From the NCBI GenBank assembly GCA_963792585.1, contig CAWBWI010000001.1, positions 576,001-640,000 of the forward strand: 64,000 nt of DNA, read 5' to 3'. The notes beneath the pieces are model-generated. The model worked only from the letters and a program-made list of their open reading frames with translations. It did no database searches and had not been told where the DNA came from. The translations under genes and the position numbers were made by a program. Below, piece by piece: positions 31,623 to 35,921 of the stretch (within the stretch, counting starts at the first letter, position 1; the number at the start of each line of letters is the position of its first letter). Origin of the DNA: Candidatus Eiseniibacteriota bacterium (GTDB lineage: Bacteria > Eisenbacteria > RBG-16-71-46 > CAIMUX01 > VGJL01).

Positions 31623-32548
31623 ATGGGCCGCGCGCGGCTCGCGTTTCTACTCCTCCTGCTTCTCGCGGGGCGAACCTGGGGCGCAGCGGACTCGCTTTCC
31701 GTGCTCCCTTCCTGGGATCCGACCGATCCCGAGGCGGGCCTTCACCTGACGCCGCACGCGCTCGCGGTCGATCCTATCGGGCGCCTATGGGTCCTGGATC
31801 GATCCCGCGGGCGGATCCTTCGATTCCATGCCGATGGCGCGGGACGATCGCTCAACGTTGGTGGGCGCGAGGGAAGCGCCGCGGCGCCCGTCGCCGACCT
31901 GGGGGTCAGCGGGGCGTTCCTCTACCTCCTGGAGCCCTCCGGGCCCTCGATCGCGCTGCTGGATCTGGACGGGGCGTGGCGGGATCGGGTGGAGCTTGCG
32001 GGTTCTCTCGACGAGGCGGGGCGTCCGGGTTTCCTCGCGTCGCGTCTGCTCGTCGGTTCATCAGGCGATCTCTGGTTGTTCGAGCCTCGTTCCGGAGGAC
32101 TCCTTCGCTTCGATCGCAGGGGGCGATTCCTCGACGCGCCGCTGGAAGCCCTCGCAGGCAATGCGCGGCCCGTCCGCATTGCCGATGCCGCGCTCACGCC
32201 CGATGACGGGATCGTCATCCTCGATGCGGTCCGAGGGGGGATCCTCCCGCTCGACGCATCGGGAGCGCCGATGGCGTTCGAGTCGCTCCTCCTCCTCCCG
32301 TCGAGCCTTCGTCGATCGCAGTCGACGCGAAAGGACGACGCTACGTGCTCGAGGCAGGAGGGCGACTTCGGATCCTCGATGCCGGGGGCGCCCTGCTCAC
32401 GGACCGAATGGCGCCCGGTGTCGAGGGGACCGGTCAACGACGCCTGGCGATCACAGGAGATCACGTTCTGTGCGCCGCGGATCCTGCGCGGGGGAAGGTC
32501 CTGCGCTGGCGCGTGGGATCGGGCGGGTCGGAGGATGGCGAACGCTAG
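31623..32548 (+). CDS. Secreted NHL/beta-propeller protein (frameshift near 32295)
   Basis: Signal peptide; PHALAVDPIGRLWVLD repeats; C-terminus in ORF 32345..32548. The 1515-aa ORF is an artefactual fusion with the next gene. Confidence 0.65.
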
Positions 32549-35500
32549 ATTGACCCTGGGCCTCCTCGTTGCGGTCCTTTGCGGCATCGCCGCAACGCCC
32601 GCGCGCGGCGGGTCCGCCATCCGGCGCAGCGTCAACGCCCGCGTGCGCGTGATATCGCTCCCCTCCGACAGTGCGCGCTTCGACCTTCCGGGCGAGTGGA
32701 TCCGGGTCGGTTCGGTCCGTGCCACCTTGGACGGCGTCCCGTTGCGGGCGGGCGCCGACTACGAACTCGAGATGACGGAGGGGATCTTGCGCTTGCTGCG
32801 CACGCTCCCCGCAGGGCGCCTGACCATTCGTTACGAGGTCCTCCCTCTGGCGATCGGGCGCATCTTCCAGGCGCCGATCCCTCCCGATACCGGATCGGTG
32901 GCGCGCGCTCCGATCCCGCCGCGACCCCCCGGCGAGACGACGGTCGCCTCCCGCGCACACCTGGATATCCGCGGCAGCAAGACGGTGAGTCTCGAGATCG
33001 GAAACACGCAGGATCTGACCGTGCGCCAGAGCCTCGACGTTTCCCTCTCGGGGGAAATCGTCGAGGGGGTCCGGGTGCGGGGCGTTCTGTCCGATCGGCA
33101 GACGCCGTTGCAGGCGGAGGGACGTACGACCGACCTATCCGATCTAGATCGGGTCTTTCTCGAGGTCGAGGGACCGAGAGCCGGAATGACCCTCGGCGAT
33201 TTCGTCCTACGGGGTCCGGCGGGTCTCTTCACGCGCTATGAGCGCCAGCTCGAGGGAATCCGTCTCACGGGCCGCGCGGGCGAGGGGAGCGCCAGCGTGG
33301 CCGCCGCCACGATCCCTGGGGTCTTTCGATCGATCGAGTTTCTCGGGGTGGAGGGAAAGCAAGGGCCCTACAGCCTTCGCCCGCAGGAAGCGACCACGGA
33401 CGCCGCCGTCGTGGCCGGAACGGAACGCGTCTGGCTCGACGGCGAGCTGCTCGTGCGGGGCGAGGACCGCGACTATCTGATCGACTACGCGGCCTCCACC
33501 GTGACCTTCACGGGACGCCGCGTGGTGAACCAGGCATCCCGAATCACGGTCGACTGCCAGATCGGCACCCAGCCGTACCGGCGGAACGCCTACGCGGCGG
33601 AGGCCGGTTGGGGCGCGGCGGCGAAGCTCGACGGGCACGGCCTCGGCCTGCGCGCCAGCCTCCTCGCGGAGCGGGACGACCGAGGGCACCCCATCGGGGG
33701 AGCGCTCACCGAGCGGGAGAAGGAGATCCTGAGCGCGGCCGGAGACAGCCTCTCGGATTCGCTCCATGCCGGGGTCGATTGCGGGGCGATCGGGCACGGC
33801 GACTACGAACAGGTGGAGGCCGACAGCCTCGTGCAGCCGTTCTTTCGCTTCGTGGGCGACAGCTTGGGGACCTGCGCGGTCCGGTTCGACGATGTGGGGG
33901 TCGGGCGGGGCGATTACCTCGACTCCCTGACCGCCGGAGCGAAGACGATCTACCGCTTCGTGGGGCCGCGTCGCGGCCGATTCGCGCCGGGGCGCGCCGT
34001 CCCCCGACCGTCCGAGCGGTCGCTCGTCGACCTTCTCGGATTCTGGGCCGGTCCCGGCGGACTCTCGTTCGAGATGGAGGGGGCGGGTTCCTCCGACGAT
34101 CCCAACACCTACTCCGATCGGGATGACGCGGACAGGACCGGCGGTGCGCTGCGGTTGCGGTTCGCGCGGGAGACGGCGCCCGTTCGCGCGCTCGGCCGGA
34201 GTCTGGGGCGCTGGGGAGTGGAACTCGAGTCGCGGGACGTCGAGCCGCGGTTCCGCGCGATCGGGCGGGTCGACCCGGGATGGCTGGGATATGAATGGGG
34301 GGTCGCGTCCGATCGCTTCGGGAATGGAGACCGCCGCCGCAGCATCCGAGCGCGGCAGGAACCCGGCGCCGGTTTCTCGCTCGAGGAGGCGTATGAGTCG
34401 CTCTCCAACCGGCGCGACCTCGAGGGAGATCGAAAGTCGCTGCGACTGCAGAGGACGGGTCGCGTGTTCGGCAACGCCGAACTCCAGCGGGTCTCGACGA
34501 GGGATCGCGGGAGCGGGGCGACGACGCGCGGGGCGCGGCGGGTCGGCATGGCCGCCGCCGGGGTTCGGTGGATGCGCACGGAGAGCAGCTTCGGATTTCG
34601 CAGAGAGGAGAGCGAAATCGGCACGGGGAGCGCGCGCACGGGAAGTGGCTTCGATGAGTGGAGAGGATCGGGCGCATGGATCCTCGCTCGAGAGCGGGGT
34701 CGATTCGACCTCACGCGCACGGTCCGCCAGGACAAGAGGATCGACGCGTCGTCGCGAGCGAATCGTGGCCGGGCCGGAACCTGGGATGCGCACGCCGTCT
34801 ACCAGCCCGTGGGCCGCCTGCTGGACCTCCGCTACACCCGCCGGGACTTCTCGCAGGGTGGCTCGACGACGCGCTCCGACCTGGCCGGACTGCTCTGGTC
34901 GCAGGAGGAATCGAGCGGGCGTTTCAGCCAGCAATTGCGGGCGGATCTCACCACGCAGGATCAGGCTTCGCGAACGAAGTCGATCGAATACGTCGGGCCC
35001 GGATTGGGGAACTACGACAGTCTCGGCGTCTACGTCGGCTCCGGTGAGTACGACGTGGTGCTGCGCCCCTCGGGAGACCGGCGTCTCGAACGCCGGTTGG
35101 ACGGATCCTGGAGGATCGAGTTCGCTCCCGGGCGCGGAAGGGAATCGACGCCGCAGGGCCTGGCGTCCTCCGCGCTCTGGAGTTCGCAGTGGCTCCTCTA
35201 CGCGACGACGACGGCGCGAACGGCGGGCTCGGCCGGGGAATTCTGGGATGACCTTCCATCGCTTCTCGCCGCCCGCAAGGCCGGGGTTCCACTGGCCTCC
35301 TATCGACTCCGGATGGAGGCGAGCGCCCTTCCGCAGGCGCGCTGGGCGGGTCCGCAGGTTCGGGTCGAGCGCGAGCGGAGTCGTTCCAACGATTTGAGCA
35401 ACGTTCAGTCCGATCGCGAACGCGATCTCGCCCAACTGACGCTTCGATCGACTCCGACGCGGGCCTGGACGCTCGAGCAGGAGGTCCAAGGCGATCGCGA

Positions 35501-35921
35501 TGTCGAGAGAACGCGATTCACATCGGGGAGCGCGGCGGGCGCTTCCGGGTGGAGGTCCGCACGGGTCCGTTTCGGCGGCTGGTTCCGTCCCCGCGAGGGC
35601 TTGACGACCCGCCTGGGCCTGATCGGTCGGCGGCGCACGCGGGTCGAGACCGGGGGCCACTACGAAATCACGCAGATCGTGCCCGGGTTTCAGTGGGTCG
35701 GCCCGAGGCGGACACGTGTGGACCTGCAGGCGACCCGCTCGTGGGTGAGCGGTCCTCGGGGGCAACCGCTCGGCCTCGAACGGGGCGGTTGGGAGGGACG
35801 CGGAAGTCTGGCCCTGAAGCTCCACACCTACCTCGATGCCACGGCGATATGGGAGATCAAGGCTCCCGATACGGGGGCGCGGCAAACGACCGCACGCGCC
35901 GAGGTGAGGTCCGTCTTCTGA
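32535..35921 (+). CDS. Large (~1128 aa) outer membrane protein with SprA/Sov-like motifs
   Basis: Signal peptide; two G[ST]xRxxxDGxxLxxGxDYxx[DE] motifs; [17 protein letters not shown]..LSD; alternating beta strands; C-terminal Phe. Confidence 0.6.
   Translation: [1128 protein letters not shown]

Follow-up and report, generated by a model that had tools for sequence, protein, structure and literature searches.

A three-gene set around a predicted giant barrel

The stretch of DNA analyzed here, referred to as the window, comprises 64,000 nucleotides of a Candidatus Eiseniibacteriota bacterium (assembly GCA_963792585.1, contig CAWBWI010000001.1, positions 576,001 to 640,000), and the subject of this work is a gene in it that encodes a predicted giant outer-membrane beta-barrel, preceded by a gene for an NHL-repeat propeller and followed by one for an Omp85-family protein (Table 1). 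Translation of positions 32535-35918 on the plus strand gave 1,128 residues, and the TGA stop codon occupied positions 35919-35921. The 25 residues at the N terminus resembled a signal peptide, which appears to be cleavable rather than an inner-membrane anchor, and the C terminus read ...AEVRSVF, with Phe as the last residue. Three motifs were located, namely, 21 residues at positions 58-78 of the protein, a stretch beginning IRGSKT... at residues 145-176, and 24 residues at positions 295-318. The motifs, the length of about 1,128 residues and the terminal Phe quoted in a preliminary description of this DNA were thus all recovered upon retranslation.

The barrel gene overlaps both of its neighbors. 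At the junction with the Omp85 gene the DNA read TTC TGA TG, in which the TGA (35919-35921) and the ATG (35921-35923) share one base, A, just as the preliminary description had proposed for this stop and start. On the other side, the stop codon of the NHL gene (32546-32548) overlaps the barrel ATG by 14 nucleotides. The stop-free frame of the barrel extends in the 5' direction to position 31374, and that upstream part is the separate NHL gene starting at position 31623. The G+C content of the window was 64-70%, without a break at the barrel locus.

The frame of the Omp85 gene in the window changes once, at a run of five G residues (37277-37281); one short-read contig from a public run (depth about 3) has one more G in this run, which would keep the frame open. 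In genome G004, the ortholog is a single 558-aa frame that is 43-53% identical to the two pieces in the window, and it was through this ortholog that membership in the Omp85 superfamily was established, with 33.4 bits to Pfam Omp85 (PF01103; cut-off 24) and with a polypeptide transport-associated (POTRA) domain match of 18.8 bits, below the cut-off. Its closest solved relatives were POTRA domains 4-5 and the beginning of the barrel of BamA. Taken separately, the two pieces from the window gave no Pfam match and only weak NCBIfam BamA matches; distant Omp85 orthologs scored 54-65 bits. Against the BamA equivalog TIGR03303 (297 bits), the window piece reached 29.3 bits and the G004 ortholog 44.8 bits. 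The canonical BamA of the genome was found at G000:C1:820873 (160 bits to PF01103), and a second strong Omp85 (154 bits) was found elsewhere.

The NHL gene also changes frame, between positions 32282 and 32309, as a tblastn search with the ortholog of a relative fell in two frames. The model of an ortholog had a mean predicted local distance difference test score (pLDDT) of 91.3, and its best fold matches were the NHL domains of Thin, Brat and TRIM proteins (template modeling [TM] scores of 0.70-0.72), so that the predicted fold was that of a six-bladed NHL propeller. In several lineages the signal peptide of the NHL protein was lipoprotein-like. As a test for a likeness to the Plug protein of SprA, the Foldseek matches of the propeller were inspected for chains of 6H3J; the 50 that were listed included none of these, a result that neither supports nor excludes a plug role. 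A complex prediction for the G004 orthologs of the Omp85 (residues 35-558) and the NHL protein (residues 24-309), run without controls and without the barrel, returned no answer (score of 0.00 in both runs).

Table 1. Genes of the window and parts of the barrel protein
Feature	Position	Strand	Description
Giant-barrel gene	32535..35921	+	1,128 aa; translation, AlphaFold2 with DSSP, Foldseek, VIA-align, hhalign
N-terminal beta-sandwich of barrel protein	residues 35-102		AlphaFold2/DSSP
Pro-rich disordered linker	residues 105-139		AlphaFold2/DSSP
Barrel strands	residues 142-1127		long hairpins in an almost unbroken series; AlphaFold2/DSSP
Two small beta domains inserted in the barrel	about residues 271-347 and 387-493		about 77 and 107 residues; AlphaFold2
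Omp85-family gene	35921..37569	+	about 550 aa if read through; C-terminal piece ends ...RIHFRLETRF
NHL-repeat propeller gene	31623..32548	+	about 308 aa if read through; signal peptide; Pfam NHL 23 bits (cut-off 20)
Big_1/invasin-like protein	20841-25070	+	1,410 aa; three Big_1 and one Invasin_D3; directly 5' of the PorV gene
PorV/PorQ-family outer-membrane protein	25519..26586	+	Pfam PorV E 1.4e-19; PorV_fam NF033709 198.9 bits (cut-off 90)
M6-like metalloprotease-like protein	26736..29915	+	1,059 aa; FG-GAP repeats; Pfam Peptidase_M6 24.3 bits
Small protein 1	29990..30871	+	293 aa; weak DUF5683-like motif (ortholog E 0.002, below cut-off)
Small protein 2	30865..31614	+	249 aa; paralogue of small protein 1
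SurA/PpiD-like parvulin-type peptidyl-prolyl isomerase (PPIase)	37610..39352	+	580 aa; Pfam Rotamase_2 40.8 bits; NCBIfam PPIase; directly 3' of the Omp85 gene

Predicted fold of the barrel protein and its relation to SprA

AlphaFold2, run on a 42-sequence alignment, gave a model of the barrel protein with a mean pLDDT of 83.6 and a predicted TM score (pTM) of 0.74, and the fold predicted was that of a closed giant outer-membrane beta-barrel. The DSSP string of the model contained 39 long strands in the region from residue 142 to residue 1127. In three pairs of them the split amounted to only 2-3 residues, and merging all three pairs gives 36 strands. Since the strands of an antiparallel barrel must be even in number for it to close, the model is read as a barrel of probably about 36-38 strands.

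When the model was compared with the PDB by Foldseek, the first three ranks were taken by chains of SprA (8gl6_A, 6h3i_A and 8gl8_A; E 4.4e-10 to 1.1e-9), with TonB-dependent receptors, LptD, MtrB, PapC and SlpA below them. VIA-align placed 668 residues of 6h3i_A on the model (model residues 138-1128 versus chain residues 132-2401), and the next-longest alignments covered 438 residues in the re-ranking and 381 in a search of all 48,161 representatives. Among the chains listed, SprA was the only one that aligned end to end along the predicted barrel. Chains of LptD and of TonB-dependent receptors, either of which would have contradicted the likeness to SprA/Sov suggested at the outset, stood below SprA in Foldseek and aligned over at most 381 residues; moreover, no Pfam OstA, LptD or TonB plug domain was detected in the barrel protein, and the model is a predicted barrel rather than a non-barrel.

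The reference for SprA/Sov was the equivalog TIGR04189 (cut-off, 200 bits) together with PDB entries 6H3I, 6H3J, 8GL6 and 8GL8. SprA is described in PMC7463736 as the largest single-chain outer-membrane barrel identified, and more than 150 kDa of it lies outside the membrane according to PMC12611786; its partners, as given in PMC7463736 and PMC10994853, are PorV, Plug, PPI, SkpA and SprE. TIGR04189 was the sole NCBIfam match for the barrel protein, with residues 292-340 aligned to model positions 604-650 at 17 bits (E 6e-4) and with 11.6 bits in the genome search, far from the equivalog cut-off, and there was no Pfam match at E <= 0.01. A comparison of profiles by hhalign went further. The family profile aligned with a profile of 28 SprA sequences at 97.6% probability (E 3.9e-12) over 308 columns, which correspond to family positions 65-406 and SprA positions 399-742. 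The 28-sequence profile was needed for this result; against a single SprA sequence only one 73-column domain was aligned (81%). In an alternative, collinear alignment (79%), the N-terminal region of SprA was matched by the first strands of the barrel together with the 'QSLDL.L.G.I' motif. The resemblance to SprA thus goes beyond chance, and the SprA/Sov likeness, first suggested by a few segments, was borne out by the profile match, by the first three Foldseek ranks and by the 668 residues aligned along the whole barrel.

Several results set the protein apart from SprA itself. Pfam SprA_N (PF14349), which was present in all 120 listed SprA homologs, was matched by none of the 42 family members at E <= 1, although the SprA_N region is the one aligned by hhalign at 79% probability. 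No counterpart of the SprA segment from about 760 to 1,400 was found in the family by hhalign. A search of the family profile against the sequences of solved structures retrieved only a gene-transfer-agent tail protein (E 0.61, in the small N-terminal domain) and did not reach SprA. Moreover, a full-length SprA accompanied the barrel in 10 of the 10 genomes checked. The genome of the window has its own SprA on another contig (G000:C4:17198-21309), in six pieces with open frames of 150-1,103 aa, and four relatives encode, besides the 1,130-aa barrel, an intact SprA whose length is 2,100-2,350 aa; five distant holders of the barrel also have SprA (Ignavibacterium, a 'Chlorobiota'-labelled metagenome-assembled genome, Chitinophagales, KSB1 and Zixibacteria). 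From profiles and predicted structure alike, the barrel protein appears to be a distant, cap-less relative of SprA that stands outside the SprA family proper. The expression "half-size" used for it in the preliminary description holds for the polypeptide and not for the barrel, which has about 36-38 predicted strands against the 36 of SprA; the part that is missing is the cap.

The small beta-sandwich domains provide a further observation. The N-terminal one (window positions 32637-32840) resembles small tail or neck domains of phages and gene-transfer agents; it matched 8hqo_R with a Z score of 10.2 and a root mean square deviation (rmsd) of 2.1 Å over 71 residues, the E value of 0.61 was that to 6tba, and DUF2460 was matched in 4 of the 42 family members. 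The 'DG..L..G.DY' domain recurs at residues 295-343 of the barrel protein and twice in SprA. Separately, a third site in the genome (locus L006, G000:C1:1085754-1085966), within a 1,466-aa open frame, gave a weak 20-bit match to the SprA motif (model positions 583-654) and did not match the barrel protein itself.

Distribution of the family and conservation of the gene order

Of the 7,994 candidates scored in a word-indexed search, 48 proved to be relatives at E <= 0.001, mostly of 1,030-1,230 aa; none carried a Pfam domain, and every name given was 'hypothetical'. An exhaustive profile search, which covered 1.84 billion representatives and in which clusters were formed at 50% identity, returned 5,710 family clusters at E <= 1e-3, 4,164 at 1e-10 and 2,778 at 1e-30, and the best 150 of them were nearly all full-length matches of 1,050-1,265 aa. 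To judge from these searches, the family of the barrel protein is very large and unnamed, and its members are uniform in length (about 1,050-1,265 aa). A scan of one genome per species gave at least 585 confirmed loci, which for the listed rows is an upper bound because the search pattern also matches true SprA genes; the best 80 were labelled Zixibacteria, KSB1, Calditrichota, Latescibacterota, Krumholzibacteriota, LCP-89, Ignavibacteriota and Bacteroidota. Within the order of the window, the barrel was matched in 29 of 31 genomes, mostly once. The remaining two held barrel fragments at contig edges only (198 bits in one and a weak 27 bits in the other) as well as contig-edge fragments of the Omp85, and there is hence no true absence among the 31.

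The nearest clusters in the ESM Atlas were all unnamed, and the best named leads, a porin family (0.89) and SprA_N (0.87), both fell below the 0.9 line. Neither a short SprA relative nor this family or this module was described in the full-text literature searched or, supplementary tables apart, in the text of PMC12611786, PMC10994853, PMC7463736, PMC12045153 and PMC12773653. The suggestion that the family is uncharacterized is supported by the lack of a Pfam family, by the 'hypothetical' names, by the absence of Pfam SprA_N from the 42 members and by the profile search.

To count synteny, profiles were built from the loci, and at least 1.5 kb of downstream sequence was required for the Omp85 and at least 1.1 kb of upstream sequence for the NHL gene. 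In 41 of 66 distant loci the next gene on the same strand was the Omp85, and in 40 of 69 the barrel was directly preceded on its 5' side by the NHL gene. Where both flanks were available (60 loci), both genes were present in 34, neither in 20 and one in 6. The three genes make up a tight operon, and the order NHL-barrel-Omp85 is kept across many phyla of the Fibrobacterota-Chlorobiota-Bacteroidota group. A FastTree phylogeny built from 78 barrels put 23 of the 25 loci that lack the Omp85 into one clade, composed of Ignavibacteriota and Bacteroidota (Shimodaira-Hasegawa-like support of 97). In three of three genomes from this clade, a full-length member of the same Omp85 subfamily was encoded elsewhere, at 545, 530 and 238 bits versus 131, 133 and 118 bits for the next-best Omp85, and the barrel and the subfamily co-occurred even if unlinked in five of five genomes tested. 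The preliminary description had proposed a pairing with a particular Omp85 partner; adjacency in the distant loci and persistence of the subfamily where the genes are separated both agree with that proposal. Absent from that description were the NHL propeller as a third conserved gene, the surroundings with PorV and type IX secretion genes, and the frame changes in the NHL and Omp85 genes. In the literature searched, the pairing of an Omp85 with one giant barrel is without a described precedent.

At loci of the Ignavibacteriota type (L041, L052, L057, L063, L066, L069, L071, L077, L082 and L088), a conserved series of genes comes after the barrel, encoding a NUDIX protein, a kinase of the PfkB type, an IF-2B-like protein and RecO. 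In the three Ignavibacteriota/Bacteroidota genomes, the unlinked Omp85 likewise had housekeeping neighbors, and no NHL, barrel or TamB-like gene was found beside it by profile; the unlinked ortholog there also adjoins a gene for a PfkB-family kinase.

In the lineage of the window, the three genes belong to a larger block (Table 1). The order PorV, M6-like protein, two small proteins, NHL, barrel and Omp85 was kept in four of four relatives, and the PPIase followed the Omp85 in three of the four, with no PPIase match in the stretch taken from the fourth; among 57 distant loci, the M6-like gene preceded the module in 11 and the small-protein pair in 9. Profiles of both small proteins converged on the same open reading frames (ORFs). 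The PorV-family gene, 6 kb 5' of the barrel, scored 129.9 bits against the PorV equivalog, below its cut-off of 250, and the best PorV match of the genome adjoins the cluster in G000, G004, G005 and G019; the PPIase lies 1.7 kb 3' of the barrel. The M6-like protein scored 210.6 bits against NF052323 ('T9SS-dependent M6-like inactivated metalloprotease'; T9SS, type IX secretion system), below the cut-off of 600, and 18.5 bits, a weak match, against the T9SS C-terminal sorting domain Por_Secre_tail, below the cut-off of 27; from these matches it is likely a T9SS cargo protein. The 1,410-aa protein matched no NCBIfam family and is possibly a surface adhesin or a T9SS cargo protein. NF052323 and NF052325 ('putative type IX sorting system protein PorV2'), both recent models, touch 26736-29915 and 25519-26586, respectively, below their cut-offs, and for the barrel, the Omp85 and the NHL gene NCBIfam has no model; curators of NCBIfam evidently noticed part of this neighborhood.

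The assembly has 7 contigs and 84% marker completeness. Because the NHL gene and SprA are also broken and because completeness is 84% with only 7 contigs, assembly indels are the likelier source of the frame change in the Omp85 gene, and the breaks in all three genes suggest homopolymer indel errors of a long-read assembly. Elsewhere in the window, a MutL-family gene (PF13941) at 17584-18716 (+) is spread over two overlapping ORFs (profile positions 72-238 and 266-405), and an ORF for the glycine-cleavage P-protein at 14006-14818 (+) covers profile positions 125-343 only; both are probably frame breaks of the same kind. An 873-aa ORF at 59080-61698 (+) joins a type II secretion system (T2SS) protein F domain (residues 9-121) to a sensor kinase with PAS, HisKA and HATPase domains; this unusual architecture may result from a frame error that fused two genes. 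At 52152-53885 lies the gene for a T2SSE/MshEN ATPase.

Interpretation and comparison with known systems

Together, these results make it likely that the locus marks an undescribed outer-membrane machine. The reading that we favor is that the barrel protein, as a distant cap-less relative of SprA, forms a gated channel that works with the NHL propeller and with the Omp85 as insertase or docking partner and that has a role in type IX secretion in this lineage; it is offered tentatively, as a combination that is quite conceivable but falls a little short of probable. Under this reading, the barrel would act as an outer-membrane channel, and such a channel would need closing because the lumen of the 36-strand SprA barrel measures about 7 nm (PMC7463736). 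The propeller, from the periplasmic side, or else the highly conserved loop formed by residues 187-205 would gate the barrel, and the Omp85 would insert the barrel or dock to it. A service to type IX secretion is suggested for the lineage of the window because the barrel lies in one block with PorV and with a likely cargo protein bearing a C-terminal domain (CTD).

A number of points weigh against this reading. The confident homology with SprA covers about 300 residues, much of which are two repeated small beta-sandwich domains, and the alternative hhalign alignment of the C-terminal 600 residues with the C-terminal barrel of SprA, at 47%, is unreliable alone. The Foldseek TM scores to SprA were low (0.22-0.23 by query length), and in VIA-align the Z score of 6h3i_A (13.8, with an rmsd of 9.4 Å) was tied with those of many ordinary porins and exceeded by the FimD usher (17.5 in the re-ranking and 14.8 in the search of representatives). 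The number of strands was taken from the DSSP string and not from coordinates. Channel function is a matter of what we infer. The co-occurrence with SprA was established in holders of the barrel only. The Omp85 and NHL genes of the window each contain a frame change, and the read support for an assembly error concerns the Omp85 only and comes from a single contig. Finally, the barrel in Ignavibacteriota and Bacteroidota lies amid housekeeping genes (NUDIX, PfkB, IF-2B-like, RecO and NusA), apart from T9SS, NHL and Omp85 genes, and for this reason the link to type IX secretion may be lineage-specific.

The high Z scores of other barrels raise the alternative of an ordinary large porin or uptake channel, whose likeness to SprA would be a generic likeness of big barrels plus a shared small domain and whose neighbors would be coincidental. 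VIA-align Z scores were indeed tied among porins, ushers and SprA (Z of 13-17), Foldseek listed TonB-dependent receptors and LptD at E values of 1e-7 to 1e-5, and the small domain with the DY motif is also found in tail proteins of phages and gene-transfer agents. This explanation is nevertheless improbable, since synteny with NHL and Omp85 that extends over seven or more phylum-level labels, with start and stop codons that overlap, is not a coincidence, since no Pfam domain of a TonB plug, OstA or LptD was found, and since about 36-38 strands are far above any known porin; the smaller barrels, moreover, aligned over no more than 381-438 residues, well short of SprA, and the 24-strand barrel of FimD spans model residues 143-790 only, with about 14 further strands beyond. 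The main rival is that the module is independent of type IX secretion, with the Omp85, a propeller lipoprotein and a SurA-like isomerase forming an auxiliary machine like the machinery for beta-barrel assembly (BAM) and the barrel being its stable partner or main client, in the service of general envelope assembly, in which lipids or surface proteins would, for example, be exported or inserted. The analogy here is that of a propeller lipoprotein as the counterpart of BamB. Such a housekeeping role would fit a barrel that is single copy and occurs in 29 of the order's 31 genomes (the two others contain fragments), a family that is huge and uniform in length, the housekeeping genes that surround both barrel and Omp85 in Ignavibacteriota and in Bacteroidota, the parvulin-type PPIase after the Omp85 in the lineage of the window and the many NHL orthologs with lipoprotein-like signal peptides. 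We consider it rather unlikely, because a canonical BamA and a second strong Omp85 are already encoded elsewhere in the genome, because no relative of the barrel other than the T9SS translocon is detectable and because in this order the module and the genome's best PorV share one block.

A pairing of the TamB-TamA kind had been brought to mind by the preliminary description; the large protein would then be a periplasm-spanning conduit for lipids or proteins docked to the Omp85. A protein of more than 1,000 aa does adjoin an Omp85 of the size of TamA, but this analogy fails: the model is a predicted closed transmembrane barrel with a C-terminal Phe, there is no Pfam match and hence no DUF490 (42 members at E <= 1), and the signal peptide appears to be cleavable and not an inner-membrane anchor. 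The known gene order is tamA-tamB, and here the large protein comes before the Omp85. TamB itself, according to PMC12045153, is a periplasm-spanning, inner-membrane-anchored beta-taco and not a barrel. The identity of the large protein with TamB was rejected on the grounds of the missing DUF490, the missing membrane anchor and the closed-barrel model, and a TamB-TamA-like conduit is accordingly hardly credible. A bolder reading is that of an undescribed three-part machine, in which a pore of about 36 strands, reduced to the wall of the SprA barrel and lacking the cap, works with an Omp85 of its own and with an NHL propeller. Conserved in Bacteroidota and related phyla next to the classical SprA, it would be either a second translocon of the type IX style for another class of cargo or an ancestral state to which SprA later added its cap; this reading is possible but on the unlikely side.

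The family would be a second and far more compact one of predicted barrels of SprA size, with thousands of clusters and tied to one BamA paralogue, and it bears on how giant barrels are built and gated. If the pairing is true, the handling of a barrel of about 36 strands by an Omp85 can be studied in a natural system. A further question that arises is whether type IX secretion uses a second outer-membrane route or an accessory pore. As labelled, the family includes cultured lineages (Ignavibacterium album and Chitinophaga) and is thus open to genetics.

Among known systems, the chaperone-usher pore FimD/PapC (24 strands) had the best VIA-align Z scores, those of FimD, over model residues 143-790. 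This region spans about the first 22-24 strands of the model, however, and no usher plug, N-terminal or C-terminal domain and no sequence similarity was found. The module shares with LptD-LptE a large barrel that has a periplasmic beta domain at its N terminus and that is encoded next to a small partner, a secreted protein or a lipoprotein, for which a place in the lumen or beneath it is conceivable; LptD chains were among the Foldseek and VIA-align matches. The LptD barrel has 26 strands; in contrast, about 36-38 are predicted here, OstA/LptD Pfam domains are lacking, and the partner is a propeller rather than LptE. With TamA-TamB, the module shares only the arrangement of a protein of more than 1,000 aa encoded beside a TamA-sized Omp85.

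The likeness to BAM lies in the partners. The downstream Omp85 has POTRA-like N-terminal repeats and a C-terminal domain of the 16-strand type, and neighboring genes encode a SurA-like PPIase and a beta-propeller that in several lineages is a lipoprotein. At about 550 aa, however, this Omp85 has fewer POTRA domains than BamA. BamB, the propeller lipoprotein of the BAM complex, is eight-bladed, whereas the propeller of the window is of the six-bladed NHL type.

The closest comparison is that with SprA. Both are giant single-chain outer-membrane barrels by structure or prediction, profile comparison shows homology in the repeated beta-sandwich domains ('DG..L..G.DY.IDY') and in the first strands of the barrel, both families are restricted to one superphylum, and a PorV gene stands in the gene block of the barrel in the lineage of the window. 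In contrast, SprA is 2,000-2,700 aa long and the barrel protein about 1,130 aa, the barrel family is without the extracellular cap and without SprA_N and occurs in the same genomes as true SprA, and it has an Omp85 and an NHL propeller of its own.

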